Made by a program: the position numbers and the translations under genes. A model generated the notes under the pieces. That model made no database searches. It was not told the DNA's origin and saw nothing but the letters and a program-made list of their open reading frames with translations. A DNA stretch of 64,000 bases from a plasmid. Location: sequence record NZ_CP092111.1; one strand, 5' to 3'. Shown here in pieces: positions 2,026 to 47,800 of the stretch (positions are counted from its first letter, which is position 1; each line of letters starts with the position of its first letter).

Positions 2026-2050
2026 AGGGTAGTCAAATCGAAATTTTCAA

Positions 2051-4770: not shown

Positions 4771-4776
4771 AAACCT

Positions 4777-27909: not shown

Positions 27910-27941
27910 AAGAAAATCTTAATATATTAGGAGGAATTTAT

Positions 27942-28235: not shown

Positions 28236-28255
28236 TGTGGGAGGTGTCTATCACC

Positions 28256-31232: not shown

Positions 31233-31273
31233 AGGGGAGAATATCTCTCCCTCTATTAGAAAGGAGATACAAC

Positions 31274-31804: not shown

Positions 31805-31818
31805 GGGAGAAGGTATAA

Positions 31819-34065
31819 ATGAGAAAAAAGAGGCGGCTTCTTATCCGCTGCGGTTTATTAATGTTCTGTATACTGATGCTTATTCCTTGTTCTGCTGCAT
31901 CAGCTAAACCTAATGTTATGGATGATTTATCACCAGAATCGGACTTGCCAGATACTTCTGCGCCGGTAGTTAAATATAATGAGTATCCGATCGAAAATTA
32001 TGATTTAGATATCTATGCTGAGGATGAGGATGAGGATGAGGGAGGAATTTTAGATGCTATTAAGTCATTAAACCCCTTTAATATCAAGGATGAAGTAATA
32101 GAGAGTATTCTGGCGTTTCAACAAACCATTCTTTCGGGTCTTTGGTATGGATATACTGTAGTCGTGAACTCAGGATTATATTTTATAGAGCAAGCTTTTA
32201 CTTTTGATCTGATAGGTTCTATGATTGGCTACATCGCTGACCTTATTGCAGAGATTGGCGGTCCATATGGGATTGGCCAATTTATGGGTTTTATGCTCAT
32301 TTTGACTTCAGCTTGGCTAGTGTATACAACTGCAAAAAAACAATTTAGACATGCTATTGGTGGACTTCTAATTGCTGCGCTATTATCAGGTTTTTTCACC
32401 TTGTATGTTCAGAATAGTGAATCAGTTCTTGGTTTTATGAATGACAAACGATTGGCAGTATCAAACGCTGTTTTAAGTTCTTCAACATACTCATTAGATA
32501 GTCAGGATTCTGATGGGCAAGTTAAAGGCAAAGATACACCAAGATACACAGACGCTGCGTCATCGCGTTATGGTTTGTCAAGAATTCGAAACTTACTGCA
32601 TGATTTGCTGATTGTTAAGCCTTATATGTTAATGGAATTTGGATCAACTAATTTAGCAGTTGTTGGGGGAGCAAAAAGTAAAAATGACTTTACACAGAAG
32701 GATATAGATGCTGGTAAAGAAAAGTTGCGAACGCTTTTAAAAGCTAAACCAGGAAGTGACGAACGGAAGAAATTTATTAAAGAAAATTTGGATGAAACTA
32801 TGTTTTCAGCTGAGTATACCAATCAAAGAACTGTATTATCATTCCTCATTTGGGTTCCGGCCGTATTAATTTTGGCTTTTGCTGGGCTAGTGTCTTTTCT
32901 AGTTCAAATATACAGTGCTGGTTTCTTAATACAAGCTTCAATAGGTGTTTTCATTATAATGGCTGCGATTATGCCTACTTTTCGATCGTTTGCAAGTCAA
33001 TGGGCGCTTAAATTGTTAAATTTTCTTGCGATGTCAGTAGCATTTACTTTTTCACTCATATTGATGTTCAGCCTTGTAAATATAGTTTATAAAGTAGCAG
33101 AGGATAAAAACTGGAATTACTTATCTATCGTTACAGGAGTGGCCATAGTTGTTATTACAATGATTGTACTTTCATCTAAACTTTGGGGATATCAAATTGT
33201 TAAACAAAACTTAGAAAAAGCACGAGAATTTACGCAAAAGATGGTCCAAAATTCAAAAGAACAACAAATGGCAAAAGATCGTATTCAAGAAGCTGGTGGT
33301 GGGAGTGGATGGTATTCCCCTGGAAGAACTGCATCATCAGGAAGTCCGAATAGACTTCAAAAAAACATTAACAGGTTGAATAAATCAGATAAAGCCCCAA
33401 TAAAAGGTTCTGAGGATACAGGTAACAATATAGCTGCTGCTGATCTAAACAAGAAAGCTGATAATAAAGCAGCAGATAAACTTTTGAAAAATGTTAATAG
33501 TAAGAAAAACAAAAAAGATAATCGTATTAAGAAACAACCAGGTCATAAGGATTTGGAACAACTGTCAGCAGGAAAACTGTCTAATGATCAGAATGGTAAT
33601 GGCCAAAACGGAGATGAAAAACAGTCTGGCAACAAGAATCAGCATTTAATCAATCATATGCAGAAAAAACAGGCTGATGGAGAACGAATCAAGCAGCAGC
33701 CAGGACAGAAGGAGAATGAAAATGTTGCTGTGCAAAAGAGACCCCAAGGAGAAGAAGCTTTACAAAGAATACGCAGGCAAGAAGCACAAGAAAAACGGAG
33801 AATCCATAAACAGCCGCAAACTCCTGAAAACTTAAAACCAGAAAATGAACGTGGGCAAACAGGAGAATATCAAACCGTAGCTCGTGAGAAAGCTAAAATG
33901 AAAGCGATGGAGCAAAGAACGCGCGAAAACAATTCTGCTGATAATATTGTTCAGCTGCCTAGAAGAGATGAAACAGCCGCTTCTAGTGAAACTAATCAAC
34001 AAAATTCTCATTCAAGAGAGTTGGACCAAATGAGAAAAAGGATGAATGAAAATAAAGGAGAGTGA
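31819..34065 (+). CDS. T4SS polytopic channel protein (VirB6/ConG-like) with long low-complexity K/Q/N-rich C-terminal tail
   Basis: Signal/TM, at least 6 TM helices in the middle, and a disordered C-terminus of ~250 aa. Position matches ConG in ICEBs1-type operons. Confidence 0.6.
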   Translation: MRKKRRLLIRCGLLMFCILMLIPCSAASAKPNVMDDLSPESDLPDTSAPVVKYNEYPIENYDLDIYAEDEDEDEGGILDAIKSLNPFNIKDEVIESILAFQQTILSGLWYGYTVVVNSGLYFIEQAFTFDLIGSMIGYIADLIAEIGGPYGIGQFMGFMLILTSAWLVYTTAKKQFRHAIGGLLIAALLSGFFTLYVQNSESVLGFMNDKRLAVSNAVLSSSTYSLDSQDSDGQVKGKDTPRYTDAASSRYGLSRIRNLLHDLLIVKPYMLMEFGSTNLAVVGGAKSKNDFTQKDIDAGKEKLRTLLKAKPGSDERKKFIKENLDETMFSAEYTNQRTVLSFLIWVPAVLILAFAGLVSFLVQIYSAGFLIQASIGVFIIMAAIMPTFRSFASQWALKLLNFLAMSVAFTFSLILMFSLVNIVYKVAEDKNWNYLSIVTGVAIVVITMIVLSSKLWGYQIVKQNLEKAREFTQKMVQNSKEQQMAKDRIQEAGGGSGWYSPGRTASSGSPNRLQKNINRLNKSDKAPIKGSEDTGNNIAAADLNKKADNKAADKLLKNVNSKKNKKDNRIKKQPGHKDLEQLSAGKLSNDQNGNGQNGDEKQSGNKNQHLINHMQKKQADGERIKQQPGQKENENVAVQKRPQGEEALQRIRRQEAQEKRRIHKQPQTPENLKPENERGQTGEYQTVAREKAKMKAMEQRTRENNSADNIVQLPRRDETAASSETNQQNSHSRELDQMRKRMNENKGE

Positions 34066-36469: not shown

Positions 36470-37200
36470 AGACAGAGCCGGCTGAAAGGAACCGGCTCTT
36501 TTTTGCAGCCAGAGAGACAACGGGCCGCCCTGGCAGCTGAAGGAGATCCGCGGCCGTCGGTTCCGATGCAGCGCCGGCTTTTTTTTGTGTCCTGGCCAAG
36601 CCGGGCCGCCCTGATAGCTGAAGGAGATCCGTGGCCGTCGGTTCCGTGCGGTTCCAGAAGGAGAGCATCTGAAGGAGAAAACGCCCCGCGTTTACGGGGC
36701 GATTGGGAAAGCACCGGCAGCGCCGCGCCATGAAATCTCTGCGTCTCATCGAAGCTGCGGGGCAGCCGGATTCCGGAGCCGATCAGGCGCCGGCTTTTTT
36801 TGTGTCCTGGCCAAGCCGGGCCGCTCTGGTAGCTGAAGGAGATCCGCGGCCGTCGGTTCCGTGCGGTTCCAGAAGGAGAGCATCTGAAGGAGAAAACGCC
36901 CCGCGTTTACGGGGCGATTGGGAAAGCACCGGCAGCGCGCCGCGTCGTGAAATCTCCGCGTCTCATCGAAGCTGCGGGGCAGCCGGATTCCGGAGCCGAC
37001 CAGGCGCCGGCTTTTTTTGTGTCCTGGCCAAGCCGGGCCGCCCTGGCTGCTGAAGGAGCTCCGCTCAGACCTTGCAGCTGCATCAGCACATGACGAGTTG
37101 CTTAGAGCGAAGAGAGAAAGAGCGCGCCGCGCTTACCATGGTGCTTAGGAGCCGCTGTAGCTGCAGGTGATCCAGAGCCGATAGAAAGGAACCGGCTCTT
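36470..37200. repeat. GC-rich composite hairpin repeat locus (A-type), ~3 units
   Basis: Units beginning GAAAACGCCCCGCGTTTACGGGGCGATTGGGAAAGCACCGGCAGCG at ~36680 and ~36895. Confidence 0.8.
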
Positions 37201-37310: not shown

Positions 37311-37526
37311 TTATTCGTAATGTTTTAAGCTTGCTTCAATAGATTTAATGTTACTGGTTAATTTTCGAATTTGTCTTCGGAGAGTATCATTAACAACAGT
37401 AGGAATATTACCTTCTTGTTTATTTATGAAGCTTTGAACAACCTCTTTTTCTTCAACTGATTGTTTCAATTCAGACTTTAGTTCGTTTATTCTTTCTTTC
37501 ATGAGTTCTTTTGTTTGTTCATCCAT
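37311..37526 (-). CDS. small coiled-coil protein (71 aa)
   Basis: Last gene of the - strand operon that starts at 39187. Confidence 0.4.
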   Translation of the reverse strand: MDEQTKELMKERINELKSELKQSVEEKEVVQSFINKQEGNIPTVVNDTLRRQIRKLTSNIKSIEASLKHYE

Positions 37527-37610
37527 TTTAAAATGCTTCTTCTGTAAATAATTGATTTAACAATCAAACTTTTTAAAGCTACACCGCCTTTTTTGTTCAT
37601 CCATTTTTGA

Positions 37611-38114
37611 TTACTCTATTGTAAATAAGACTCTAGTTCCGTCTGGGTAATCAGAAAGCTTATGTGATACCCAGGAACCTGCCCCGCGGTTATCAGAAGG
37701 GGTTATGTATTCGATGTCTGCTCCGCTTCCTCCTTCAGCGCAAAAAGCCATTGGCCATTCATCACGATCATATCCTTTTTTTGTTGGGATATCTTTCAAT
37801 GATTGAGATCGATTATTTTCCGCTCCATCACGGTCGATAGTACACACAGCTGATTTGCCCTTGGAAATTGCATTTTCTATATGTTTGGCAGTCTCAGGGT
37901 ATTTATCAGCCGGAAAATAAATTACCTTGTCGGCTTTCTTATTTGAATTGTTGTTTTTGTCTGAAGAAACATCGATAGCTTTATCATGGGTGAATTCAGA
38001 AATAAGACGGTTTATATCCTTTATGATTGGACGAATAGGTGTATTTGGGACAAAGTTGCCCAAGGCATAAAGGCTAATTATAACGGCTCCTAATAACCCT
38101 AGAAATTTTTTCAT
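37611..38114 (-). CDS. secreted NucA/NucB-family DNase (copy 2)
   Basis: Signal peptide. [101 protein letters not shown]. Confidence 0.8.
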
Positions 38115-38168
38115 CTTTCCCGCTCCTCATAAGGGATTTTTATAAGCATGAAAGCTGCTTTGCTAATC

Positions 38169-38414
38169 TCACTCAGGTTTCTTGTAATAAAACTTGGAGC
38201 TATCAGAGATTAAGGTGTTACTTACTCTACGGATTGTTTCCGAATTTCTTTGAAATTTATTAAAAGGGGTATTGTCGATTTTATACTTTTTTCTCAATTC
38301 TTTAATCTTACCGGCGATTATAAAAAGGTCATCTTCCTTCAAATTTGCAATATCACATAATATTTCGAGATATAGTTTTTCGGTCATTTTTAATTTCACC
38401 ATCCTGCTCGTCAT
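38169..38414 (-). CDS. hypothetical protein (81 aa)
   Basis: Start codon overlaps the stop of the upstream gene (ATGA) in the operon. Confidence 0.45.
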   Translation of the reverse strand: MTSRMVKLKMTEKLYLEILCDIANLKEDDLFIIAGKIKELRKKYKIDNTPFNKFQRNSETIRRVSNTLISDSSKFYYKKPE

Positions 38415-39187
38415 TTTGTTTTATCAACAAAATCAAAAATGCTTTGATCAAGAGGCTTTTCCCCTTGCCCTTGAAACAGCCAATTTTTTGTTTCGCGGTT
38501 ATATTCCCAACCAGCTTTTTTTAAAGCCGCGCTTAATTGCTCTAAGTTAATGCTTGGTATCTTTTTAGCAATGCTTGCTAATGTTATACCTGGTTGTCTG
38601 GTTGCGGAGAGAACTTCACGTAAGGTTGGGTTTTCACCTATATTGATTGAATTTAGTTCACTCAACTCTTTATGCCATTTCTTTATATCCGATCTGTCGA
38701 ACCCTTCCTGGGTTAGAGTAGAAGGGATTTCATTAGGGGTATCCAAATAATATTGCAACTGTTTTAACGCTTCGGGTAGGGGACCGAAACTGTGTATTGT
38801 TTTGTGTCTTTGCCCTTTCCCTGGGACTGTCACGCCTTTTTTAATGTACACATAAATTTTCCCTTGTTTTTTTAATTTGACTAAGAAGCCGCTCTTTTTA
38901 AAGTCTGTCGGAGTGGCGTTACTCTTCGAAGCATATCTATGATTTACTTTGTTTCTGTCAATTTTGTCTTTCTGTAAATAAGCTTCTAAATCAGACTTTA
39001 GGTAACGATCAGCAATAGCTTGGATTTCTCCCTTATGCACTCTGTTATAAAATGTCACATGAGAAATGTTCATGTATGCCGCAGCCGCTTTGGGATCAAG
39101 GAGTTGCTCGGAGAGGTAATTTCTTATTTTCTGTTCTTTTTCCTTATCAGAAATGGGTTCATTTGCGATTTTTATTATCTCGTACAT
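38411..39187 (-). CDS. HTH DNA-binding protein (~258 aa)
   Basis: N-terminal LLDPKAAAAYMNISHVTFYNRVHKGEI is HTH-like. ATG at 39187 after GGAGG. First gene behind operator copy a. Confidence 0.5.
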   Translation of the reverse strand: MYEIIKIANEPISDKEKEQKIRNYLSEQLLDPKAAAAYMNISHVTFYNRVHKGEIQAIADRYLKSDLEAYLQKDKIDRNKVNHRYASKSNATPTDFKKSGFLVKLKKQGKIYVYIKKGVTVPGKGQRHKTIHSFGPLPEALKQLQYYLDTPNEIPSTLTQEGFDRSDIKKWHKELSELNSINIGENPTLREVLSATRQPGITLASIAKKIPSINLEQLSAALKKAGWEYNRETKNWLFQGQGEKPLDQSIFDFVDKTK

Positions 39188-39323: not shown

Positions 39324-39370
39324 TAAGTATAACATATGCTATAGTAATTGTATAGCATATGTTATACAAA
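39324..39370. promoter_or_regulatory. Palindromic operator/promoter element, copy a (TATAACATATGCTATA-n7-TATAGCATATGTTATA)
   Basis: Perfect 16-bp inverted repeat. Upstream of the - strand operon 39187..37311. Confidence 0.7.
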
Positions 39371-39371
39371 A

Positions 39372-40058
39372 TTAGTGAAGGTTCGACATTGCTTTTGAAA
39401 TTTCCTTATCAGTTGCACGTATAACGGATTCAACAAACTTTTCACAATGTCTTTCGTCCGAAAAAGAACGGCTATCGAAGTTTATATTTAACGTATATGA
39501 AAACTGTTTTTGATTTACCTTGTAAATCAGAGTTGTTACACATTCATAATTACAAATATCTTCGGTCTTATCATATTCCAGCTCCATATCATCGTACTGA
39601 GATTTAATACATTCGTCCGCAGTGTGAATCTGCCGCTCCTTTATATACTCACAAGCAATAGCTTCTATGACATGATGTATAGTCCGTTTGACAGCTGAAA
39701 GATAAAGGTCACAGTGAACGGATGGGTTTTTAACGGTTGTTATAAAAGTTGGGTGAGCATGCGTTTGAGCCGCTATTTCTGAGTGGATGATATCCTTGAA
39801 TTCAGTTTCTGCTATACCTGCAACTTCATCCAATGTCAGGAAATCAAGCGTTTGAGAATGGTCACTATTGTTTAAAAACATATTCTTATTTTTTCTCACC
39901 TCGATGCTGAGTGAAGCTAACGCATAATAGCGCATCTGCTGCTGAACACGATCACCTAGACATGCCATAATTTTTTCTTTGTTTTCTTGAGTGGCAGGCA
40001 AACCATTGCTTTCTAATACTGCCGAAAGGTCTTCTGCTTTAAGTTTTGTTAATAACAT
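39372..40058 (-). CDS. hypothetical protein (228 aa)
   Basis: Second gene of the operon driven from operator copy b. A 10-bp-stem hairpin (40093-40124) lies in the intercistronic gap. Confidence 0.5.
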   Translation of the reverse strand: MLLTKLKAEDLSAVLESNGLPATQENKEKIMACLGDRVQQQMRYYALASLSIEVRKNKNMFLNNSDHSQTLDFLTLDEVAGIAETEFKDIIHSEIAAQTHAHPTFITTVKNPSVHCDLYLSAVKRTIHHVIEAIACEYIKERQIHTADECIKSQYDDMELEYDKTEDICNYECVTTLIYKVNQKQFSYTLNINFDSRSFSDERHCEKFVESVIRATDKEISKAMSNLH

Positions 40059-40132
40059 AAGAACAGCTCCTTATTTTCGATTATGGAGAGCATTCACGCG
40101 GGGAATGAACCACGCGTGAATGCAACTAAGCA

Positions 40133-40333
40133 TTAATCATTAATAATGGTGCCGCAAAATATATGAATTCGATTATTGGTGTGCTGGATCATTCTGACTT
40201 GGACATCCTCTTGTTTAGAGATCGAAAGGTTTTTAGCTTTCTTAAAGACGCTTGCAATGCTAATTGGGCTTTCGATTGTTTCCTCCAATTGATCTTTTAC
40301 AAACAAATTTGCTTCGAAAACTCTTGTTTTCAT
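40133..40333 (-). CDS. hypothetical small protein (66 aa)
   Basis: First gene behind operator copy b. RBS GGAGCGG. Confidence 0.45.
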   Translation of the reverse strand: MKTRVFEANLFVKDQLEETIESPISIASVFKKAKNLSISKQEDVQVRMIQHTNNRIHIFCGTIIND

Positions 40334-40388
40334 CTGAACCGCTCCTTTTCAAATTTATTGTGTGAATGTCACCATCATCTGATGACAA

Positions 40389-40436
40389 TTCAAGTATAAC
40401 ATATGCTTTACTGATATTAAAGCATATGTTAGAAAT
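40389..40436. promoter_or_regulatory. Palindromic operator/promoter element, copy b
   Basis: TATAACATATGCTTTA-ctgatat-TAAAGCATATGTTAGA. Followed on the - strand by the conserved leader TGTCATCAGATGATGGTGACATTCACACAATAAATTT. Confidence 0.7.
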
Positions 40437-40438
40437 GT

Positions 40439-40762
40439 TTATTTATCTTTTTGATATAACGTGTAACCGCATTTGCAAAACTCAGCTATTTGTACAGGTG
40501 ACAACCCGATTGTTTCGCCCTGATCGTTGACTGATGCGACAAAAAATGGGCCGTGGATACAATGTGTCTTACCGTTTTCAGTAATTTTGCAATAGTATTG
40601 GGAATTGTAGAAGCCCTCTTCGTCGAACCAAATGTCAATGTTATTATTGAGTCTCAAACATTCGAGGTTATCGGCTCCTACAAGATTTTGCCGTTCTTCA
40701 AGGGTTTGCGGCAGTTCAACAAATCTGTTGTTCTGATGATCAAACAAAATGATTTTTTCCAT
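40439..40762 (-). CDS. hypothetical protein (~107 aa)
   Basis: ATG at 40762 (MEKIILF...) after AAAGGAAG. Cys-rich C-terminus (CKCGY). Confidence 0.5.
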   Translation of the reverse strand: MEKIILFDHQNNRFVELPQTLEERQNLVGADNLECLRLNNNIDIWFDEEGFYNSQYYCKITENGKTHCIHGPFFVASVNDQGETIGLSPVQIAEFCKCGYTLYQKDK

Positions 40763-40818
40763 AAAACTACTTCCTTTCAAATTTTATTGTGTGAATGTCA
40801 CCATCACCTGATGATAAT

Positions 40819-40866
40819 TTAAGTATAACATATTCTTTACCGATAGTAAAGCATATGTTATAAATT
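40819..40866. promoter_or_regulatory. Palindromic operator/promoter element, copy c
   Basis: TATAACATATTCTTTAC-cgata-GTAAAGCATATGTTATA plus conserved leader. Confidence 0.7.
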
Positions 40867-41530
40867 ATTTTTTGAAATTTCCATCCGGCACTCTCAGCTG
40901 ACAGATAACATGGTTTACGAATTCTTGGAAAGTACCTTCGCTACTTAGATCATGACCTTTTATGTTAGTCATAACGGCGTACCATTTTCCGCTCTTAGGG
41001 AAATAAACATTGTTAATCATATTAAAAGGATCGTCATTCTTTTCAAAGTTTTTTCCTAACATTTGAGAAGGTTTTACAAAGGATACATTACATTCTTCGT
41101 CCACATACTTATTGATCGAGTTAAAGTATCTTTTTGCAATGACTTTAATCAGGTAACAAATAGTTTCTGCCGTTTCAAAAAAAGGGGGTTCCGTTATGGA
41201 ATCGAATTGCATCTCAGAAAGAAATTCTATAGTTGCAGTGAAAGAAAAACTGCCTTTAGTTCTCTCTTCCGCTATTTCAGTGAACTCATTAAGAGTAATC
41301 AACTTCGCTCTCTTCCGATACACATCATCAGAAGTAAAAACTATTTTGTTATCCTCGATGTGATTCAGCAAAGTTTCAAAGGCATCGTGCCGAATCGTTT
41401 CTTGAATTTCTGCTGTGTCCAACTCTTGAAAGATCAATCTTATGTTTTCCTTAGTTGCCGGTATGTTGTTTCTTCGAAGAGCTTCAATAAAATCCGCTTG
41501 TGCCAGTGTGACCTGAAACGTAAAATTCAT
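40865..41530 (-). CDS. hypothetical protein (221 aa)
   Basis: Behind operator copy d and its leader. Confidence 0.5.
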   Translation of the reverse strand: MNFTFQVTLAQADFIEALRRNNIPATKENIRLIFQELDTAEIQETIRHDAFETLLNHIEDNKIVFTSDDVYRKRAKLITLNEFTEIAEERTKGSFSFTATIEFLSEMQFDSITEPPFFETAETICYLIKVIAKRYFNSINKYVDEECNVSFVKPSQMLGKNFEKNDDPFNMINNVYFPKSGKWYAVMTNIKGHDLSSEGTFQEFVNHVICQLRVPDGNFKK

Positions 41531-41586
41531 TTTAATTCTCCTTTACAAAATTTATTGTGTGAATGCCGCCATCACCTGATGACAAT

Positions 41587-41635
41587 TTAAGTATAACATA
41601 TGCTTTATATAAGGTAAAGCATATGTTATACATTT
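41587..41635. promoter_or_regulatory. Palindromic operator/promoter element, copy d
   Basis: TATAACATATGCTTTA-tataag-GTAAAGCATATGTTATA. Confidence 0.7.
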
Positions 41636-41677
41636 TTTTGTTTTGATAAAATCATTCCTTTTCTTTATAATGAAATT

Positions 41678-41762
41678 AATGATTTGTAAGGACTTTACCT
41701 CCTTAACAAATTTATTGTGTGAATAGGTTGCGGTGTGCGGAAACATGCCGCAACTCTTTTCT
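41678..41762 (+). ncRNA. Candidate ~85-nt small RNA (or degenerate leader remnant): consensus sigma-A promoter, leader-complementary core, intrinsic terminator
   Basis: TTGATA (41643-41648) - 17 nt - TATAAT (41666-41671). Transcript would contain AAATTTATTGTGTGAA, which is perfectly complementary to the TTCACACAATAAATTT leader shared by the copy b-f mRNAs, plus a CCUCCUU anti-SD-like stretch. Ends with hairpin GTTGCGG-n14-CCGCAAC + TCTTTTCT (41727-41762). Confidence 0.35.
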
Positions 41763-41802
41763 ATTATATGCTTTACTATAATTAAAGAATATGTTAGAAT
41801 TT
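41757..41802. promoter_or_regulatory. Palindromic operator/promoter element, copy e (degenerate)
   Basis: TTCTATTATATGCTTTAC-n7-TAAAGAATATGTTAGAAT, followed on the + strand by the leader variant ...GATGGTTTTCACACAATAAATC. Confidence 0.55.
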
Positions 41803-41854
41803 AATTACCGTCAGTTGATGGTTTTCACACAATAAATCTTTTGGAGGGGTTAAA

Positions 41855-42100
41855 TTGTTACCACATATCAGGAAAATGAGTCTTGTTCATGATTATCTTT
41901 ATAATAATCGTGAAGTAGCTGAAAGATCGAATGATGGGAAGGATCAAGTGAGAGACCGTTTTATCATTGTTACTACAGCAGAGGATCTCTTTGCTGAAGA
42001 AATACCCGCTGAAGAACATTATCTATATTCAGATTTTAATGAAGTGGTAAGTGAACTGCGAAACACGGTAAATGATATGAAAGCTTTAAGGGAATTTTAG
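41855..42100 (+). CDS. hypothetical protein (81 aa)
   Basis: TTG start after GGAGGGG. Behind operator copy e. Confidence 0.45.
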   Translation: MLPHIRKMSLVHDYLYNNREVAERSNDGKDQVRDRFIIVTTAEDLFAEEIPAEEHYLYSDFNEVVSELRNTVNDMKALREF

Positions 42101-42107
42101 AATATTT

Positions 42108-42155
42108 TTTCTAACATATGCTTTACTATCAGTAAAGCATATGTTATACTTAAAT
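42108..42155. promoter_or_regulatory. Palindromic operator/promoter element, copy f
   Basis: TCTAACATATGCTTTACT-atc-AGTAAAGCATATGTTATA, then leader TGTCATCAGGTGATGGTGGCATTCACACAATAAATTTGAAGGG. Confidence 0.7.
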
Positions 42156-42207
42156 TGTCATCAGGTGATGGTGGCATTCACACAATAAATTTGAAGGGAT
42201 GAAGAAA

Positions 42208-42663: not shown

Positions 42664-42760
42664 AAGAAAAAAATTTAACCAATAGGTTCACAAAGTAAAC
42701 CAAATTGTTTACTTTGTGAACTGAATGGTGTAAAATTAAGGTAAAGAAGGAGGTAGTAAT

Positions 42761-43228
42761 ATGAAAAAATCTCAACAATTTCTGAAAGGAACTTTTCCTT
42801 ACTTGGGTCATCCTGATTATGATGGGAAGCCAACTAATGATACGCTCGAAACCTTTGATCAGTTGTTTTCTCATTTCCAAGACCATCACAAGAACGGCTT
42901 TGACCTCAGACGGCTGGGCAACCTGGAGCCATCGCTTATGTTACTTGCAGTGGAAGCCATTGCGATTTTCTACAAAGAGGATCTGTACAGAGAAAAGGAA
43001 CCTGATACGGAATATATCAACCTTACAGATACCGCTAAGTTGCTTGGCATTTCAAAACAAACTTTACGTAAGCGAATGGAAAAACAAAGTCCGCCAGTAC
43101 CAAAACCAGATCACTATGTGAGCGGTGTACCGGCGTGGGAAAAGAAAGCTGTAGAACAGTTCATATGGGACAACGGCCTTTATGATAATGATGGAGAATT
43201 CACTTATCCTATTCGAGAAGAAGACTAA
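42761..43228 (+). CDS. DNA-binding protein with C-terminal excisionase/AlpA-type HTH
   Basis: INLTDTAKLLGISKQTLRKRMEK. RBS AAGGAGG. Confidence 0.5.
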   Translation: MKKSQQFLKGTFPYLGHPDYDGKPTNDTLETFDQLFSHFQDHHKNGFDLRRLGNLEPSLMLLAVEAIAIFYKEDLYREKEPDTEYINLTDTAKLLGISKQTLRKRMEKQSPPVPKPDHYVSGVPAWEKKAVEQFIWDNGLYDNDGEFTYPIREED

Positions 43229-43246: not shown

Positions 43247-43495
43247 ATGAAAAAAAACCTTGCCACATTATTGGAAGAGCGGAAGCGATCACAGTCTCAG
43301 TTGGATAAAAACGAAGTGATACTAATTAAGGATGCGATAGAAGAGTTTTCTCACAGAGAAGAGTTTGAACCAGCTTTCTATTTACAGCGATTTTTGAGCT
43401 ACCATGAACTATCCTCACGGTGGGGGTGGCTGCTTGTTGAGAAATTTCTTGTATATGTGAGAAGGGAAGAAAAAAAGCTGTCTGCTTTCCGTTAA
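43247..43495 (+). CDS. hypothetical protein (82 aa)
   Basis: RBS AAAGGAGAG. Confidence 0.4.
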   Translation: MKKNLATLLEERKRSQSQLDKNEVILIKDAIEEFSHREEFEPAFYLQRFLSYHELSSRWGWLLVEKFLVYVRREEKKLSAFR

Positions 43496-43532
43496 TTTAA
43501 TGATGCCGACACAATTGAAGGAGGATTTGACA

Positions 43533-43904
43533 ATGAAAATGTTCGGCTATGTAAGAGGTCTGTATGATTTAGAAAGAATGGCGGAATTGTATGGGTGGCA
43601 GATCAATTCAAAGGATCATTGTAATAAGGGGTCAGACTTTGTTTATCTTTTTCATGAGGAACGGGATTTTTTGGTAGCGGTAAATACGATTAATGGTCGG
43701 TTCTTTGTTACACATCGATTAACGAAAAACCTTGTGGCTACGGATCAAAGTGTCAAATTAAAAAGTGAAAAATGGTATGAGGATTTGCTTGAAATCCTTT
43801 ATAAAGAGATTCCATGCCGTTTCTTAAATAAAAAAGAGTTCAGCCGCCAGCTGAACCCTCTTGAAACCTTAAAAGCTTCTCACGCTAAAGAAGATTTCAT
43901 GTAA
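43533..43904 (+). CDS. hypothetical protein (~123 aa), paralog of 44363-44665
   Basis: ATG at 43533 after AAGGAGG. Shares DFVYLFHEERDFLVAVNTINGRFFV / DYVFLYGKTKDDIMVAINTFNGHFFV with the paralog. Confidence 0.5.
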   Translation: MKMFGYVRGLYDLERMAELYGWQINSKDHCNKGSDFVYLFHEERDFLVAVNTINGRFFVTHRLTKNLVATDQSVKLKSEKWYEDLLEILYKEIPCRFLNKKEFSRQLNPLETLKASHAKEDFM

Positions 43905-44137
43905 TTATAGCACAGATCCGTTTATTCCTGTATGGGAGGTGCACGAATGACAGCCGCTGAAGTCGCGGTGATATTAGGAATTTTCCTGACATCTCTGCAC
44001 ATCTGTGAAAAGCTTCTCACGCTAGAAAAGATGTTAATAGAAAGAAAGTCACCAAAGAAAAAAAGTCCTCGGAAAGCAAGCCGCAACAGTAAGCGTAAGT
44101 TTGGATAGAGGGAGAGGGTTCGCCTCTCCCCGCCTAT

Positions 44138-44329
44138 ATGGGTTGTCAAAATGATATGAAATTACTCAAAACTATAAAAGAGATTGTTTTCTGGCTATTC
44201 ATCTTCACTTATGTCTTTGGTGTCCGCACAGCGGTTAGCGGCGGTATTCAAGAAGCTTTAGACATATTGATCATTATTTCTGTTGTTTGTTCGTTAATTG
44301 TATTTTGGATAAAAAGTAGACAAGCCTAA
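44138..44329 (+). CDS. small membrane protein (63 aa)
   Basis: Two TM helices. Confidence 0.35.
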   Translation: MGCQNDMKLLKTIKEIVFWLFIFTYVFGVRTAVSGGIQEALDILIIISVVCSLIVFWIKSRQA

Positions 44330-44362
44330 GCAGGCTTGTCTTGAATTAAAGGAGCAGATAAT

Positions 44363-44665
44363 GTGAAAAAATTTGCCGGTGTAAGATCATTGGACGATAT
44401 GAGAACACAAGCGATTGAAGCAGGGTGGAAATTTGATGAGAAGGCTTACCATAAGGAGAACAGTGACTATGTATTCCTTTATGGTAAAACAAAAGATGAC
44501 ATTATGGTTGCTATCAATACATTCAATGGCCATTTCTTTGTTTATAATAATGCAACTGATGAAAGTATAGCTACGCATTTAAGTGAGCGATTTGATCAAG
44601 AATCTTGGTACGTTGAAATTCTGAATATTGTTAATAAGCCATATGTGAAAAAAGAGCGGCTTTAA
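44363..44665 (+). CDS. hypothetical protein (100 aa), paralog of 43533-43904
   Basis: GTG start after AAAGGAG. Confidence 0.5.
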   Translation: MKKFAGVRSLDDMRTQAIEAGWKFDEKAYHKENSDYVFLYGKTKDDIMVAINTFNGHFFVYNNATDESIATHLSERFDQESWYVEILNIVNKPYVKKERL

Positions 44666-44780
44666 TCACTCAGCACATACAGCAGGCGCAGCAGGTCTGC
44701 GCTCTCTTCACAAATGATACAACATTGAACATTTTTCGTTTTGAACCGGTTTAAATTTTATCGGTGAGAGGTGTTTTGAA

Positions 44781-45056
44781 TTGCAGTATCCAGGAGATTA
44801 CGTAACGATTGTAAAAAAGCCTTCTAATAGGTATGACCAAGGTCTTTTCGAGATCCGTGGTATACCCAATACCTTCTTTGAATTTTCATATCTTGGAGAC
44901 AGAGGTTTTATAGAGATTAAAGAAAGCGGTACAGCGATATACTGTGTCAACCGGAATGTTAAAGAGGGGAAACCTGTTTCATATAACTTTAGCAAGAAAA
45001 ATATTGCATATCTCAGAGAGCAGATAAGATATCTGCTGGACAGACGACTATACTAA
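44781..45056 (+). CDS. hypothetical protein (91 aa)
   Basis: TTG start after GAGAGGTG. Confidence 0.4.
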   Translation: MQYPGDYVTIVKKPSNRYDQGLFEIRGIPNTFFEFSYLGDRGFIEIKESGTAIYCVNRNVKEGKPVSYNFSKKNIAYLREQIRYLLDRRLY

Positions 45057-45085
45057 AATATGTGGTTTATAATTGATGAATAGGA

Positions 45086-45610
45086 GTGTTAAATGTGTAT
45101 GGCGGTAGCCTAAACGATATAGAAGCGAATTTAGAGCGGCTTTTAGAAGCTGAAGAGAAATCATTGTCTTGGAGCATTTCGTTTATGTGTGAGGAAGGAA
45201 TAGAATTAGAATCAGTAGGAAGTGTGTATTATAGCGGGAACAGCTTTTATAATGCCGAGGATGCTTATCAATATTTAAAAGAAAAAAACCTTCTTTCAGA
45301 GTTTTCGCTTAGCCAGCAAGAAAAAATCATAGATCAGGTTAAAGCATTTGTGAATTTGCAGATTTTTGAAAACCCAAATTACTGCAGCCATTCAGGGTAC
45401 AAAGCTTCTCCTGAATGTTATCGGGAAACGGAAAATAAAATAATGGTAGCTTTTATAGATGATTCAGACCAACTCTATTTTGATGCTATTATAGACAAAA
45501 TCTGTGGCAATGTGAGGTTTGAGTATCTGGGGCAATACGAGACAGAGGGAAGCCGCCCTTTTGAAAACAGATCGTTTAAGATAAGTGTAGAAAGTATTAG
45601 GGGGAAATAA
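45086..45610 (+). CDS. hypothetical protein (~174 aa)
   Basis: RBS AGGAG. Start codon uncertain (GTG at 45086 or 45095). Confidence 0.4.
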   Translation: MLNVYGGSLNDIEANLERLLEAEEKSLSWSISFMCEEGIELESVGSVYYSGNSFYNAEDAYQYLKEKNLLSEFSLSQQEKIIDQVKAFVNLQIFENPNYCSHSGYKASPECYRETENKIMVAFIDDSDQLYFDAIIDKICGNVRFEYLGQYETEGSRPFENRSFKISVESIRGK

Positions 45611-45611
45611 T

Positions 45612-45887
45612 ATGAAAAGTACAGGTGTTGTTCGCAAAGTTGACGAATTAGGGCGCGTTGTTTTACCGATTGAGATTAGAAGGATATTTGATATGAAACA
45701 TAAAGATCCGATAGAAATTTTCACCGAGAATGATACGATAATTCTTAGAAAATACCAACCGCAGAAACAGTGTGCGATCACGGGCACAGTGTCAGATGAA
45801 AATATGACCTTTAGCGGAGGGATTGTTCTGAGTCCAGAAGGATGCGAGAGGTTAGTGTCTGAATTAATAGAATTAGGGCGCCGATAG
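45612..45887 (+). CDS. abrB: AbrB-family transition-state regulator paralog
   Basis: MKSTGVVRKVDELGRVVLPIEIRRIFDMKHKDPIEIFTENDTIILRKYQP...CAITGTVSDEN is nearly collinear with the B. subtilis AbrB sequence as I recall it (MKSTGIVRKVDELGRVVIPIELRR...). Confidence 0.8.
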   Translation: MKSTGVVRKVDELGRVVLPIEIRRIFDMKHKDPIEIFTENDTIILRKYQPQKQCAITGTVSDENMTFSGGIVLSPEGCERLVSELIELGRR

Positions 45888-45938
45888 GGGTATCAAAACT
45901 CTTCTGTGTAAAGGGTTAATTAAGGAGATGCGGGTATT

Positions 45939-46127
45939 ATGACAATGGAACGTTACTTAAAATTAAGATATAAAGGAACTACCGTGCAAGAAATTCAAAA
46001 TGAATATGAATTAAGCGAAAGCACCGTTTGGACCCTTGAATTAGGTTATACTTGTTTTCTCAAAGGGATTCCGCTGGATGAAGCGATTAAAGCTATTTTT
46101 AGCATTGAGGGCCCACAAGTTCATTAA
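45939..46127 (+). CDS. hypothetical small protein (62 aa)
   Basis: RBS AAGGAGATG. Confidence 0.35.
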   Translation: MTMERYLKLRYKGTTVQEIQNEYELSESTVWTLELGYTCFLKGIPLDEAIKAIFSIEGPQVH

Positions 46128-46129
46128 TA

Positions 46130-47800
46130 CGGCGTCAGCTAGCAATCTGAAGGCGAAAAACGCTTCGCGTTTACGGAGCGATCGGGAGAGTGCTGGATGC
46201 GCCTCTCCTATAAAATCTCCGCGACTCATCACAAGTTCGGGAGCAACCGGATTCCGGAGCCGGCCAGGCGCCGGCTTTTTTGTGGCCAGGTCAGGCAACG
46301 GATCGCCCTGGCTGTTGAAGGAGATACGCGGCCGCCGGTCCCGATATGGCGCCTGCAGGAGAGCATAGAAGGCGAAAACGCTTCGCGTTTACGGGGCGAT
46401 CTGGTCTGCATGGGCAGCACCGCGCCATGAAATCTCTGTGTCACATCGAAGCTGCGGGGCAGCCGGATTCCGGAGCCGATCAGGCGCCGGCTTTTTTTGT
46501 GTCCTGGCCAGACGGGCCGCCCTGGTAGCTGAAGGAGCTCCGCGGCCGTCGGTTCCGATGCGGCGCCAGCAGGAGAGCGTCTGAAGGTGAAAACACACCG
46601 CGTTTACGGGGCGATCTGGTCTGCACCGGCAGCGCCGCGTCGTGAAATCTCCGCGGCTCATCGAAGCTGCGGAGGAAACCGGATTCCGGAGCCGGCCAGG
46701 TGCCGGCTTTTTTTGTGTCCAGAGCAGGAAACGGGCCGCCCTGGTAGCTGAAGGAGCTCCGCGGCCGTCGGTTCCGATGCGGCGCCAGCAGGAGAGCGTC
46801 TGAAGGTGAAAACACACCGCGTTTACGGGGCGATCTGGTCTGCACCGGCAGCGCCGCGTCGTGAAATCTCCGCGGCTCATCGAAGCTGCGGAGGAAACCG
46901 GATTCCGGAGCCGGCCAGGTGCCGGCTTTTTTTGTGTCCAGAGCAGGAAACGGGCCGCCCTGGCTGCTGAAGGAGATCCGCGGCCGTCGGTCCCGATATG
47001 GCGCCAGCAGGAGAGCATAGAAGGCGAAAACGCCCCGCGTTTACGAAGCGATCGGGAGTATACCGGCAGCGCCGCATCGTGAAATCTCCGCGGCTCATCG
47101 AAGCTGCGGGCAACCGAATTTGGGAACCGGCCAGGCGCAGGCTTTTTTGTGGCCAGGTCAGGCAACGGATCGCCCTGGCTGCTGAAGGAGATCCGCGGCC
47201 GCCGGTCCCGATATGGCGCCAGCAGGAGAGCATCTGAAGGCGAAAACGCCCCGCGTTTACGGGGCGATCGGGAGAGCATCTGCAGCGCGCCGCGCCATGA
47301 AATCTCTGCGGCTCATCGAAGCTGCGGGGGCTGCCAGATTCCGGAGCCGACCAGGCGCCGGCTTTTTGTGTTCTGGCCAGGACGGAACGCCCTGGCTGCA
47401 GCTGAAGGATATCCGCATCCGACGGCCCTAATACGGCGCCAGCAGGAGAGCGTCTGAAGGCAAAACGCCCCGCGTTTACGGGGCGATCGGGAGAGCATCT
47501 GCAGCGCGCCGCGCCATGAAATCTCTGCGGCTCATCGAAGCTGCGGGGGCTGCCAGATTCCGGAGCCGACCAGGCGCTGGTTTTTTGTGTCCAGGGCAAG
47601 CTACGGGACGCCCTGGTTGCAGCTGAAGGATATCCGCATCCGACGGCCCTAATACGGCGCCAGCAGGAGAGCGTTGAAGGCAAAACGCCCCGCGTTTACG
47701 GGGCGATCAGGGATGCACCGGCAGCGCCGCCTCATGAAATCTCTGCGGCTCATCGAAGCTGCGGGGCATCCGGATTCCGGAACCGGCCGGTCGCCTGCAA
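46130..47800. repeat. GC-rich composite hairpin repeat locus (A-type), ~7.5 tandem units of ~218 bp; largest array
   Basis: GAAAACGC(C/T)(C/T)CGCGTTTACGG unit starts at ~46155, 46375, 46590, 46810, 47030, 47243, 47463, 47688. Each unit carries three hairpins, including the terminator-like AGCCGGC-CAGGC-GCCGGCT+T6. Confidence 0.85.

Follow-up and report, generated by a model that had tools for sequence, protein, structure and literature searches.

Tandem promoter-operator cassettes with a common leader in a lineage of Bacillus conjugative plasmids: a candidate autoregulated establishment-gene regulon

The window analysed here is a plasmid stretch of 64,000 nucleotides (NZ_CP092111.1). It contains an island with six copies of a long palindrome which, judging from anatomy and comparison with related plasmids, are likely to be promoters with a shared protein operator that together form a regulon. 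Our best reading, with a probability of about 0.6, is that a repressor which also controls its own gene would keep this regulon silent, so that expression surges once the plasmid arrives in a cell lacking the repressor; this reading draws on the sequences and on analogy with known plasmids.

Palindromes and promoters

All six palindromes reported in the first-pass annotation were located again, across positions 39328-42148. They are 39 bp long with 17-nt arms and a constant 5-nt centre; the centre had been given as 3-7 nt, but is always 5 nt once the arms are taken as 17 nt. Their number is far above chance: the island has 14 half-site matches, where 0.36 would be expected across the entire window (0/100 shuffles reach 15), and 5 occurrences of the inner core CTTTAC-n5-GTAAAG compare with an expectation of 0.14. 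The palindromes and their predicted promoters are as follows.

39328..39366, minus strand: palindrome a, variant operator TATAACATATGCTATAC-n5-, overlapping the TG-extended promoter of the HTH_17 operon (39354..39326)
40395..40433, minus strand: palindrome b, operator and TG-extended promoter (40420..40393) for the 66-aa and 228-aa genes
40824..40862, minus strand: palindrome c, operator and TG-extended promoter (40850..40822, TTTACT-17-TATACT) for the DUF3846 gene
41592..41630, minus strand: palindrome d, operator and TG-extended promoter (41618..41590) for the 221-aa gene
41760..41798, both strands: palindrome e, bidirectional unit
42110..42148, plus strand: palindrome f, operator and TG-extended promoter (42122..42150) for the RadC/JAB gene, with the downstream operon reached by read-through

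Each palindrome contains a predicted sigma-A-type promoter, TTTACT-17-TGtTATACT, pointing at the adjacent gene. The palindromes with a promoter on the strand of their gene (6/6) represent six of the eight TG-extended sites among 30 promoter-like sites in 9.5 kb, which supports the proposal that the repeats are promoter-plus-operator units of co-regulated transcription units. In palindrome a, the half-site GCTATAC replaces GCTTTAC, the conserved leader is absent and a 125-nt non-conserved leader follows. From palindrome e, a plus-strand promoter (41772..41800, TTTACT-17-TAGAAT) leads to the 81-aa gene, and a minus-strand promoter (-10 TATAAT at 41768..41763) leads to a leader with a different, GC-rich hairpin, behind which no clear ORF was found. 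The distance from the stop codon of an upstream gene to the palindrome that follows is 2-9 nt, so the units form tandem cassettes.

Genes of the island

The genes behind the cassettes, and those further along the same operons, are listed below.

38411..39187, minus strand: HTH_17 gene, 258 aa (PF12728, 28.1 bits, cut-off 27 bits)
37311..38390, minus strand: rest of the operon behind palindrome a, three ORFs
38169-38390, minus strand: 73-aa ORF of this operon
37611-38114, minus strand: NucA/NucB-like DNase of this operon, N-terminus signal-peptide-like
37311-37526, minus strand: 71-aa ORF of this operon, coiled-coil-like
39372..40333, minus strand: cargo of unit b, a 66-aa gene (40133-40333) and a 228-aa gene (39372-40058)
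40439..40762, minus strand: cargo of unit c, DUF3846 protein, 107 aa (E 5e-14)
40865..41530, minus strand: cargo of unit d, 221-aa protein of no known family
41855..42100, plus strand: plus-strand cargo of unit e, 81-aa protein of no known family, with orthologues in plasmids L002 and L005
42208..42663, plus strand: cargo of unit f, RadC-like JAB-domain protein, 151 aa (E 1.9e-36)
42761..43228, plus strand: HTH155 gene, 155 aa, excisionase/MerR-like HTH
43247..46127, plus strand: rest of the plus-strand operon, nine small ORFs of 53-171 aa without known family
45612-45887, plus strand: AbrB/MazE-type DNA-binding protein in the plus-strand operon

The gene inventory thus agrees with the earlier one: RadC/JAB, NucA/NucB, HTH_17 and DUF3846 proteins were found, as were family-less proteins of 66, 71, 73, 81, 221 and 228 aa. 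The genes downstream of HTH_17 in the palindrome-a operon have orthologues in L002 and L005, and the DUF3846 gene is duplicated in L002 and L007. Unit b has an intercistronic hairpin at 40090-40125. Its 228-aa protein is distantly paralogous to the 221-aa protein of unit d (23% identity), and a search for homologues beyond its own cluster found none. The nine small ORFs of the plus-strand operon include two paralogues, of 123 and 100 aa. Overall, the cargo is mostly without known relatives, and the cargo proteins gave no match to models of defence and anti-defence proteins.

Conserved leaders

Behind five of the palindromes comes a leader in which a hairpin marks the predicted 5' end; a TTCACACAATAAAT box is next, and then the RBS.

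40334..40387, minus strand: leader b, 5' hairpin UGUCAUCA..UGGUGACA, TTCACACAATAAAT box, RBS
40763..40816, minus strand: leader c, design as leader b
41531..41584, minus strand: leader d, design as leader b
41695..41754, minus strand: leader e-, unrelated GC-rich 5' hairpin GUUGCGG..CCGCAAC, TTCACACAATAAAT box, RBS-like AAGGAGG
41806..41854, plus strand: leader e+, variant hairpin ACCGUC-AGUU-GAUGGU, box as in leader b
42156..42207, plus strand: leader f, design as leader b; predicted transcription start near 42157, placed by its distance to the -10 element

Five leader copies had been counted before. Five palindromes are indeed followed by the leader, but the box occurs six times; since the sixth copy (41710-41723, minus strand) lies behind palindrome e on its other strand, palindrome e is a bidirectional unit, as it is in all relatives.

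All leaders are predicted to form the 5'-terminal stem-loop suggested earlier (7-8 bp, total -7 to -9.6 kcal/mol); its folding, however, is unexceptional when compared with shuffles (z -0.5 to -1.6). Across 24 units, 97.5% of the cells of the main hairpin are paired, and the covariation in its stem is no better than that of shuffled alignments, 47/500 of which reach the observed score. Because covariation resembles that of shuffles and the folding signal is weak, the leader may be conserved for sequence and not for structure. Unrelated hairpins are present at the position of the main hairpin in L009 (UCACC-AAUU-GGUGA) and in leader e-, where a comparison of 4 lineages gives 3 compensatory pairs in the hairpin.

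A second regulon in the window has a GAAAGGAGG element at the place of the leader hairpin. This element resembles STAB-SD, a stabiliser that blocks RNase J1 (PMC4113751). Bacillus 5' stabilisers include 5'-terminal stem-loops (aprE, ermC) as well as the STAB-SD of cry3A (PMC4113751, PMC7509114), and like these the hairpin of the main regulon, or the SD-like GAAAGGAGG element of the other island, sits a few nt at most from the predicted 5' end and apart from the real RBS. The copying of one putative stabiliser in front of a whole regulon, here at starts that are predicted only, is unusual by comparison.

Operator classes in related plasmids

The same architecture is repeated in four related Bacillus plasmids (L002, L003, L005, L007), with three operator classes (..CATATGCTTTAC, ..CATATGCTGTAC and ..CACACACTTTAC). 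The operator is AACATATGCTTTAC in the window and L003, AACATATGCTGTAC in L002 and L007, and ATCACACACTTTAC in L005. Operator changes are mirrored in both arms and in the 6-7 copies of each of the five plasmids, while all classes preserve the 17-bp spacing and the TG-extended -10. Such a concerted change is expected for a co-evolving dimeric or tetrameric reader and supports the earlier idea that a dimeric DNA-binding protein acts at the palindrome. Selection on the operator and leader units, also proposed before, is apparent from the comparison of the window with L002: the cassettes are 75-87% identical, against 66-77% (DNA) and 42-69% (protein) for the genes behind them. A tract of at least 90% identity shared by L002 and L005 begins exactly at the operator-leader junction, the operator itself being only 42-58% identical, which indicates that the operator class belongs to the resident plasmid and does not follow the cargo.

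The palindrome might instead serve mainly as a nucleic-acid hairpin, either as a 3' end-protecting, processing or terminator-like element for the upstream gene, or as a single-stranded DNA promoter or priming site in the transferred strand. Folded as RNA, the palindromes reach -16 to -21 kcal/mol (z -4.3 to -6.9); their start just past an upstream stop codon and the T-run that follows copy d on the plus strand also fit such a role, and mirrored arm changes would preserve a hairpin as well as an operator. Nevertheless, we regard it as improbable, since it leaves unexplained why each plasmid has one sequence class that changes together in all copies, why every class retains the -35, the 17-bp spacing and the TG-extended -10, and why the HTH gene has a distinct palindrome variant. 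On the transcribed strand, the hairpin is not followed by a U-tract (CUUAAAUUG). Furthermore, the hairpin form pairs the -35 arm with the -10 arm and therefore contains no linear promoter, unlike the single-stranded DNA promoters of F-type plasmids.

That the repeats are MITE or IS ends or remnants, or recombinase sites merely resembling promoters, is very improbable. They are palindromic, multi-copy and about 100 bp long, and cassette content varies among plasmids, L003 having one more unit and two genes between e and f, and L002 a duplicated DUF3846 unit; homologous recombination between units suffices for these differences. All copies lie in one island, each directly upstream of an RBS and oriented with its gene. 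No copies were found elsewhere in the window, nor in 185,579 species genomes, IMG/VR, JGI metagenomes and phage records, and no target-site duplications were seen at the repeats. The terminal-repeat alternative raised in the first-pass annotation is thus not supported, and promoters with a shared operator remain the preferred reading.

Candidate operator-binding proteins

The HTH_17 protein (38411-39187) is the best candidate for binding the main palindromes, and on comparative evidence we favour it at somewhat better than even odds. It belongs to a tiny family. A structure model of moderate quality (pLDDT 69, pTM 0.37) gives an N-terminal HTH, a linker, a central beta3-alpha3 domain, for which comparison of the model matched nothing significant, and a C-terminal extension confined to this plasmid lineage. 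The recognition helix is SHVTFYNRVHKG, SRTTFYSKVEEG or SRPTFNIKVKSK, one per operator class, and does not differ between L002 and L007, whose operators belong to one class; this covariation covers three operator classes in five plasmids, effectively three lineages. The match of operators with HTH_17 variants is observed alongside promoter-like anatomy, conservation and concerted operator change. Every plasmid compared also has the leaderless variant palindrome upstream of its HTH_17 gene (L002, L003, L005 and L007 besides the window). Any island protein diverging along the same tree would also track operator class as HTH_17 does.

The HTH155 gene has a palindrome of its own.

42686-42721, plus strand: second palindrome GTTCACAAAGTAAAC-n6-GTTTACTTTGTGAAC, overlapping the -35 of the HTH155 promoter
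42708..42736, plus strand: HTH155 promoter TTTACT-17-TAAAAT, within an element spanning 42686..42736

L002 and L005 have this palindrome at the matching place, and its changes there affect the two arms as mirror images. HTH155 co-varies with it and not with the main palindrome. Although the element scan classed it as terminator-like, this second palindrome is probably a separate autoregulatory operator. As repressor of the main palindromes HTH155 is disfavoured: the protein is 98% identical in L002 and L005 despite their differing main operators, and its gene is deleted in L007, where 7 main palindromes remain.

Binding of the operator by a different protein, whether the AbrB/MazE-type one (45612-45887), some other small protein of the island or a host factor, is in our view unlikely. 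The AbrB-like gene is found in the window, L002, L005, L007 and L009, and the N-terminal domain of its product differs among all three operator classes. AbrB-type proteins form tetramers, and such a tetramer could span two half-sites 22 bp apart; because its gene lies in the unit f operon, the protein would also be autoregulated. On the other hand, there is no palindrome directly upstream of this gene, whereas the HTH_17 gene has one in every plasmid. By eye, the DNA-contacting arginines known from AbrB appear unchanged across operator classes, and perfect 17-nt half-sites are unlike the usually poorly defined binding sites of AbrB-type proteins. A host factor in particular is unlikely, given that plasmids of closely related hosts differ in the operator core. 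Among the three HTH candidates named earlier, comparative evidence speaks for 38411-39187 and against 42761-43228, and points neither way for the AbrB-like protein.

HTH_17 falls in the MerR/excisionase-like HTH group, and MerR-type activators bind palindromes between -35 and -10, so the palindrome might be an activator site. MerR-type activation needs an overlong spacer of 19-20 bp, whereas the main promoters have an optimal 17-bp spacer and a TG-extended near-consensus -10. The main palindrome covers both promoter elements, which is typical of occlusion. Activation is therefore quite improbable, and repression by HTH_17 is preferred.

Comparison with known systems

The island had been called an undescribed system, which is overstated: the regulatory logic proposed for it was established experimentally for Reg576 of p576, an autoregulated repressor that is de-repressed after transfer (PMC6294495), and only parts are new here. 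The island would be a variant of the establishment-gene regulon known from conjugative plasmids, with operator, repressor and backbone non-homologous to those of p576. As in the Reg576/EGeRS2 system of Bacillus pumilus p576 (Val-Calvo et al., 2018, PMC6294495; 2021, PMC8708921), small operons of mostly uncharacterised genes lie beside the conjugation operon, each with a sigma-A promoter of equal form (TTtACt-n14-TGnTATAAT); in p576, several of these promoters are strong and share Reg576 operators (PMC6294495). One plasmid repressor with operators at all promoters and a deviant set at its own is predicted here, too. Leader inverted repeats, which raise expression in p576 (PMC6294495), and a proposed transient burst after transfer complete the likeness.

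The operator is different: one 39-bp inverted repeat from -35 to -10 here, whereas p576 has direct dual heptamers (TTATCCC-n2-TTATCCC) placed ahead of the -35 and in some cases past the start. No p576-type TTATCCC heptamers occur here. An HTH_17 protein of 173-258 aa carrying an additional domain is the candidate repressor here, whereas that of p576 is a small ribbon-helix-helix protein. The leader is common to nearly all units here and special to one promoter in p576, where regulation was established experimentally rather than read from sequence.

The EGeRS1 repeat of pLS20-family clades I, III and IV (PMC8708921) likewise precedes several putative establishment operons within a single island. 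It measures 420-750 bp, is GC-rich (51%), has many inverted repeats and no detectable sigma-A promoter, and blocks read-through (PMC8708921); the units here are about 100 bp, AT-rich and contain a near-consensus promoter. The plasmid backbone is unrelated to the pLS20 family at the DNA level. GC-rich tandem arrays of 217-219 bp flank the island; blastn found no similarity between these arrays and other plasmid families, a comparison that covered families apart from pLS20 itself.

In Gram-negative plasmids, global repressors such as KorA/KorB (IncP RK2) and ArdK/StbA/KorA (IncW R388) show transcriptional overshoot on entry: one repressor acts at a palindromic operator in many promoters, and negative feedback produces a burst in the new host. 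To our knowledge, their proteins, operators and hosts are unrelated to those described here, and the cassette of promoter, 5' stabiliser and box is not theirs. Phage Aca repressors (cited in PMC8708921) are similar in that an HTH repressor acts at an inverted repeat over a strong promoter and shuts early anti-defence genes after a burst. Usually, they serve a single acr operon that also encodes Aca, in contrast to the six or seven promoters here, and no sequence relation to Aca repressors was found.

Proposed mechanism

We infer repressor identity, binding, repression, transcription starts, stabilisation, expression timing and purpose as follows. Each unit of about 100 bp would be a self-contained expression cassette with four parts. 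The first is a putative sigma-A promoter, with the -35 TTTACT in the distal arm and the TG-extended -10 TGtTATACT at the end of the proximal arm; its direction would depend solely on the two bases beyond the palindrome, from which the -10 obtains its essential last T. The second is the palindrome as operator of a plasmid-encoded repressor, most probably HTH_17 (38411-39187), which may bind as a dimer or pair of dimers to half-sites with centres 22 bp apart and would thereby exclude RNA polymerase. As third part, the hairpin at 0-2 nt from the predicted mRNA 5' end may guard against 5'-end-dependent decay (RNase J1), and the fourth is the invariant TTCACAC box directly upstream of the RBS. Since the HTH_17 gene has its own slightly different operator and no stabilising leader, we propose that it is autoregulated and expressed at a low level.

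In an established plasmid every unit would be shut. Upon entry into a repressor-free recipient, all units would fire until the repressor builds up, giving a transient burst of RadC, DNase, DUF3846 and small uncharacterised proteins. The analogy with p576 and pLS20 and the gene content (RadC, NucB, DUF3846) suggest that these may be establishment or anti-defence genes; an entry-burst or establishment role is tentative, at slightly below even odds. As far as their sequences indicate, a small lineage of Bacillus conjugative plasmids uses near-identical promoter cassettes of about 100 bp for mostly uncharacterised small genes.

Six putative palindromic operators with predicted promoters

All six palindromes proposed in the first-pass annotation were found, each with 17-nt arms. 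The centre, which had been described as variable (n3-7), is a constant 5 nt.

39328-39366, palindrome a (variant half-site GCTATAC, no leader)
40395-40433, palindrome b
40824-40862, palindrome c
41592-41630, palindrome d
41760-41798, palindrome e
42110-42148, palindrome f

The half-site has 14 matches in the island (37.3-46.1 kb), compared with 0.36 expected over the entire 64-kb window, and the inner core CTTTAC-n5-GTAAAG occurs five times (0.14 expected). In a consensus scan, each palindrome contained a sigma-A-type promoter that shares its strand with the adjacent gene, and these promoters make up six of the eight TG-extended sites in 9.5 kb. The -35 element (TTTACT) lies within the distal arm, the extended -10 element (TGtTATACT) reaches 2 bases past the proximal arm, and the spacer is 17 bp in all units, or 16 bp for copy b in an alternative scan reading. 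The units are about 100 bp long and lie in DNA of 31-36% GC. The 17-bp spacer is already optimal, which makes it very improbable that the palindrome serves as an activator site; MerR-type activators bind a palindrome in an overlong spacer of 19-20 bp.

Due to the palindrome symmetry, -35-like and TGTTATA sequences occur on both strands, and promoter direction is predicted to be decided by the two bases flanking the palindrome. On the gene side these bases complete TATACT, whereas the opposite hexamer (TATAAA, TATACA or TAGAAA) is missing the final T that a -10 needs. In copy e, both hexamers end in T (TAGAAT and TATAAT), so a divergent promoter pair on one shared operator is predicted. The stop codon of the upstream gene lies 2-9 nt from the next palindrome, and the island is thus a tandem array of cassettes diverging from the e/d intergenic region.

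Related plasmids and operator classes

The island is 100% identical to plasmid unnamed1 of Bacillus velezensis SRCM124633 (NZ_CP116015.1, 67 kb) and 98% identical to the B. amyloliquefaciens plasmid NZ_CP143959.1. The transfer region (27000-34000) is 98.3% identical to NZ_CP116015.1 and 100% identical to a 22-kb B. subtilis record (NZ_CP141999.1). These different best matches indicate that the window plasmid is a mosaic relative of NZ_CP116015.1. The unit is present in three PLSDB records. Exact-pattern scans for the palindrome and for the arm plus leader in one genome per species returned no copies, nor did searches for the palindrome and for the leader in IMG/VR, for the leader in JGI metagenomes, or for the unit in phage records. 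The unit is confined to a small, narrow lineage of Bacillus plasmids.

This distribution, together with the orientation of the copies, leaves hardly any probability for the units being remnants of a mobile element, which the first-pass annotation had named as a possible refutation. Terminal repeats of MITEs and IS elements are dispersed, independent of orientation and accompanied by target-site duplications, whereas all copies of the unit are clustered in one island and oriented with genes, with none in public collections outside the lineage.

Further loci were recovered via the 258-aa protein with an HTH_17 domain that is encoded behind palindrome a. This protein is rare, with only four clusters among 5.8 billion proteins. 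It led to a B. subtilis plasmid (L002, NZ_CP114900, also recovered directly via the DNA unit), B. subtilis SC09 (L007) and a B. atrophaeus contig (L005). A full HMM search also brought in L009, a partial locus that is more distant. The scan of related plasmids proposed earlier revealed three operator classes and, in each plasmid, the same island of 6-7 units, which borders the end of the transfer operon. Proteins of the window and L002 are 42-69% identical. The units of these two plasmids are 75-87% identical, more than the coding DNA behind them (66-77%).

Operator half-sites in the three classes
Window and L003 (B. amyloliquefaciens plasmid): AACATATGCTTTAC
L002 and L007: AACATATGCTGTAC
L005: ATCACACACTTTAC

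In short form, the three classes are CATATGCTTTAC, CATATGCTGTAC and CACACACTTTAC. Within a plasmid, every copy shows the same operator changes, and each arm mirrors the other. All classes retain the TG-extended -10, the 17-bp spacing and the leader. Such concerted change is what sites read by one co-evolving protein should show. That the palindrome instead acts as a hairpin, in RNA or in single-stranded DNA, seems improbable. The predicted hairpins are stable (-16 to -21 kcal/mol), but they lack a U-tract, and a hairpin function leaves both the concerted change of sequence class and the preserved promoter geometry unexplained. The units also differ from Frpo-type promoters of F and ColIb-P9, in which a long imperfect hairpin in the transferred strand recreates a duplex -35/-10 in its stem. 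Here, the -35 and -10 lie on opposite arms and would pair together in a hairpin, and the last T of the -10 and the predicted start fall outside the palindrome.

One extra cassette, comprising a unit and genes for 79-aa and 192-aa proteins, is located between e and f in L003 (9773-10802, compared with window 42100-42150), and it is also found in L002 and L005. Unit f of the window resembles a hybrid of the two units flanking this cassette. This hybrid appearance suggests that the window plasmid lost the cassette by recombination between repeated units.

Candidate repressors

The island encodes three DNA-binding candidates:

38411-39187 (-), HTH_17 protein, 258 aa
42761-43228 (+), HTH155, a 155-aa HTH protein
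45612-45887 (+), AbrB-like protein

Residues 29-73 of the HTH_17 protein match PF12728 with 28.1 bits (cut-off 27), and a relative, P0009, scores 34.7 bits. In every plasmid its gene is preceded by a variant palindrome without leader. Three variants of the recognition helix correspond one to one with the operator classes, and L002 and L007, which share a class, have the same helix. We consider the HTH_17 protein the most likely repressor of the main palindromes, with a probability of roughly 0.55-0.6. The binder could be another protein, such as the AbrB-like protein, which likewise differs in all three operator classes; we regard this as unlikely. HTH155, on the other hand, is 98% identical between L002 and L005 despite their different main operators, and it is lost in L007 while all seven main palindromes are kept. 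Among the 20 island proteins Pfam gave no match to the RHH family, but an RHH protein could still be hidden among the small ones (66-82 aa) that have no family.

In B. subtilis SC09, a 915-bp deletion at L007 position ~6398 (corresponding to L002 11288-12202) removes HTH155 and most of RadC.

In the structure model, the HTH_17 protein has an HTH at its N-terminus, then a disordered linker and a central beta3-alpha3 domain modelled with confidence. Sequence searches of the PDB gave no relatives, and Foldseek gave nothing significant (best E-value 0.015), only weak PC4-like and SoxR hints. The central domain is also found free-standing in proteins of about 80-100 aa (about 80 representative clusters, no Pfam family). 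A 96-aa ORF located directly behind the HTH_17 gene in L002 (16497-16787) and L005 (10639-10929) is a paralogue of this domain without HTH (31-34% identity), and its product might modulate the repressor. The window plasmid lacks this ORF, and its HTH_17 protein carries a C-terminal extension of about 75 aa.

HTH155 appears to have a site of its own. A second palindrome with 15-nt arms (42686-42721), just upstream of its gene, overlaps the -35 of a separate HTH155 promoter and co-varies with the protein; palindrome and promoter together span 42686-42736. In L002 and L005 it reads GTTCAAAAAGTGAAC-n6-GTTCACTTTTTGAA; each change in one arm has its counterpart in the other, and HTH155 differs accordingly. 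The arrangement probably forms another autoregulatory circuit, one that lies inside the unit-f operon. The leader box TTCACACAATAAAT was also considered as a half-site of the HTH155 palindrome (11/15 identical, by eye) and ruled out, since no parallel change occurs in L002.

In a sliding comparison of L002 and L005, a near-identical tract covering the leader, RadC, the second palindrome and HTH155 starts exactly at the operator-leader junction, with the operator only 42-58% identical. It follows that a plasmid's operator class goes with the plasmid in residence, not with the cargo.

Leader hairpins

The annotation had counted five leader copies, behind b, c, d, e and f on the gene strand. Those five were found, and the count rises to six with a further box behind e on the opposite strand: TTCACACAATAAAT occurs six times in the island. 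In all units the predicted start, 7 nt past the -10, falls 0-2 nt before a predicted hairpin of 6-8 bp, followed by an invariant TTCACAC box, an AT-rich stretch and the RBS. For unit f, the predicted start is near 42157. Over 24 distinct units, 97.5% of the cells of the main leader hairpin are paired, and covariation in its stem is not above that of shuffles; the stem sequence is simply conserved. Searching the Rfam 15 covariance models gave no match to the leader, with one chance-level hit (E 0.28) located elsewhere.

Indirect support for a structural role of the hairpin comes from unrelated elements that occupy its position. At that position, the leader on the minus strand of unit e carries a GC-rich hairpin unrelated to the main one, for which four lineages supply three compensatory pairs. 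The hairpin of L009 is UCACC-AAUU-GGUGA, compared with UCAUC-AGGU-GAUGG in the window, and a second regulon of the plasmid has a GAAAGGAGG element there. Known 5' stabilisers against RNase J1 in Bacillus include 5' stem-loops and the SD-like STAB-SD (PMC4113751, PMC7509114), and inverted repeats in the p576 leader increased apparent promoter strength (PMC6294495).

At 41631-41700, the minus-strand leader of e ends in a good RBS, AAGGAGG, with no ATG, GTG or TTG behind it at the usual distance. The start position holds TTG in L002 and L007, and ATG with a 9-codon ORF in L005. This leader would be either a decayed micro-ORF or a non-coding transcript reading into unit d.

In unit b, a hairpin with an 11-bp stem (GCATTCACGCG-n12-CGCGTGAATGC, 40090-40125) lies between the genes for the 66-aa and 228-aa proteins. 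It lacks a T-run and may act in processing or stabilisation between the two cistrons.

The sequence AACATATG resembles half of the B. subtilis SOS box. A LexA site was rejected, as the other half misfits and the B. atrophaeus class shows no resemblance at all.

A second regulon and the TTCACAC box

A second regulon of the same design is present in the other island, with three units:

247-357 (+), unit upstream of a C5 DNA methyltransferase ORF (370-2025)
2045-2183 (+), unit upstream of a 115-aa ORF (2190-2537)
4762-4901 (+), unit upstream of the first RadC (4910-5359)

Its promoters have the form TTGAAT/TTTAAT-17-TGTTATAAT, with their own small inverted repeat ATTGAA-n9-TTCAAT. A STAB-SD-like AACGAAAGGAGG element directly follows the -10, and the leader ends in AAATTTCACACAAAAGGAGA. 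Despite their unrelated operators and 5' elements, the two leader families share the box that shortly precedes the RBS. In the window, TTCA(C/T)ACAA boxes lie at 342, 2168, 4886, 40366, 40795, 41563, 41723, 41824 and 42177. The combination of box, RBS and start codon occurs nine times (1.4 expected), in eight cases behind the two promoter families. No trans-encoded antisense partner of the box was found within the window. An Hfq-like ORF of 83 aa (10853-11104) lies at the end of the other island; the matching record lists it as RNA chaperone Hfq.

The TTCACAC(A)A box could be the target of a separate RNA-level regulator, such as the plasmid Hfq, or a dedicated translational enhancer; if so, it would add a second control layer over entry-phase genes. 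The conserved leaders could be recombination joints. In that case, cargo cassettes would be swapped between plasmids while the operator class matching each plasmid's own repressor is kept, a process that would be integron-like but proceed through homologous recombination. Taken together, an exchangeable expression cassette of about 100 bp with both added roles is a tentative and rather doubtful reading.

Plasmid context and cargo

The plus strand carries a Tcp/ICEBs1-like transfer operon, with its end at about 36.5 kb. Among its products are TcpE, PrgI, a VirB4-like ATPase, a lytic transglycosylase/NlpC-P60 protein and a Replic_Relax protein. Further plasmid genes encode a RepB primase and ParM. 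PLSDB types these plasmids as non-mobilizable despite their T4SS-like and relaxase-like genes. The island is flanked on both sides by GC-rich tandem arrays with a 217-219-bp unit, two of which bound it:

15782-16464, GC-rich array
36571-37064, GC-rich array
46145-47795, GC-rich array
54109-54976, GC-rich array
60916-61594, GC-rich array

The arrays have 55-68% GC and hairpin-plus-T-run motifs, and blastn found them in this plasmid lineage only (28 and 37 places per plasmid). A pLS20-family plasmid had been suspected from ParM, a TPR/Rap-like protein and the Replic_Relax relaxase, and was rejected: in PLSDB, nothing in that family resembles the conjugation region at the DNA level, and the GC-rich repeats match this lineage alone. 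Outside the lineage, Priestia plasmids come closest (about 65%).

RadC/JAB, DUF3846, a NucB DNase of the secreted type and two paralogues of 221 and 228 aa belong to the cargo, as do many proteins that have no relatives; for the 228-aa protein, no homologues were found outside its own cluster. Homology searches had been proposed for the unknown proteins; Pfam, PHROGs and PADLOC gave them no function. From analogy and gene content, the cargo may act in establishment or anti-defence.

Proposed mechanism and comparison with known systems

The first-pass proposal of a co-regulated regulon gains in silico support from the shared operators and promoters and from the concerted operator change: as in the Reg576 regulon, several predicted sigma-A promoters share one operator, with that of the repressor candidate in a deviant configuration. 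We propose an autoregulated repressor regulon. In resident cells, the HTH_17 protein would sit on the palindromes and occlude RNA polymerase. Upon entry into a repressor-free cell the promoters would fire, and stabilised mRNAs would be translated. The repressor itself would come from a promoter whose operator differs slightly and which has no stabiliser, and its accumulation would shut the regulon down.

Such a mechanism has been demonstrated for Reg576 of p576 (PMC6294495), and PMC8708921 sets it against EGeRS1. The earlier naming of the island as a candidate for an undescribed system thus does not extend to the mechanism, although the parts are non-homologous to those of p576. Reg576 sites are dual heptamers, TTATCCC-n2-TTATCCC, for which the window has five matches with 3 mismatches (7.0 expected), none in the island. 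The p576 repressor is an RHH protein; Pfam detected none in the island, where small proteins of no family could still be of this type. The plasmid backbones differ. EGeRS1 elements of the pLS20 type are GC-rich, span 400-750 bp and have multiple inverted repeats without a sigma-A promoter, in contrast to the short, AT-rich units with a predicted promoter described here. As judged from sequence comparison, the operator, candidate repressor and backbone are new relative to p576, and the kind of regulation is already known. We infer both the repressor assignment and the biological role.

Implications

The timing of entry-phase genes in Gram-positive conjugative plasmids has been detailed for one system only, Reg576 of p576. 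The island would represent a third solution beside Reg576 and EGeRS1, in the form of a compact cassette of operator, promoter and stabiliser. The three natural specificity classes of operator and candidate repressor offer a ready-made swap experiment, and the cassette design looks easy to test. The cassette could also be of use in B. subtilis, as a module for strong expression under tight repression. Furthermore, about 20 small proteins without known relatives are candidates for establishment or anti-defence functions in Bacillus.
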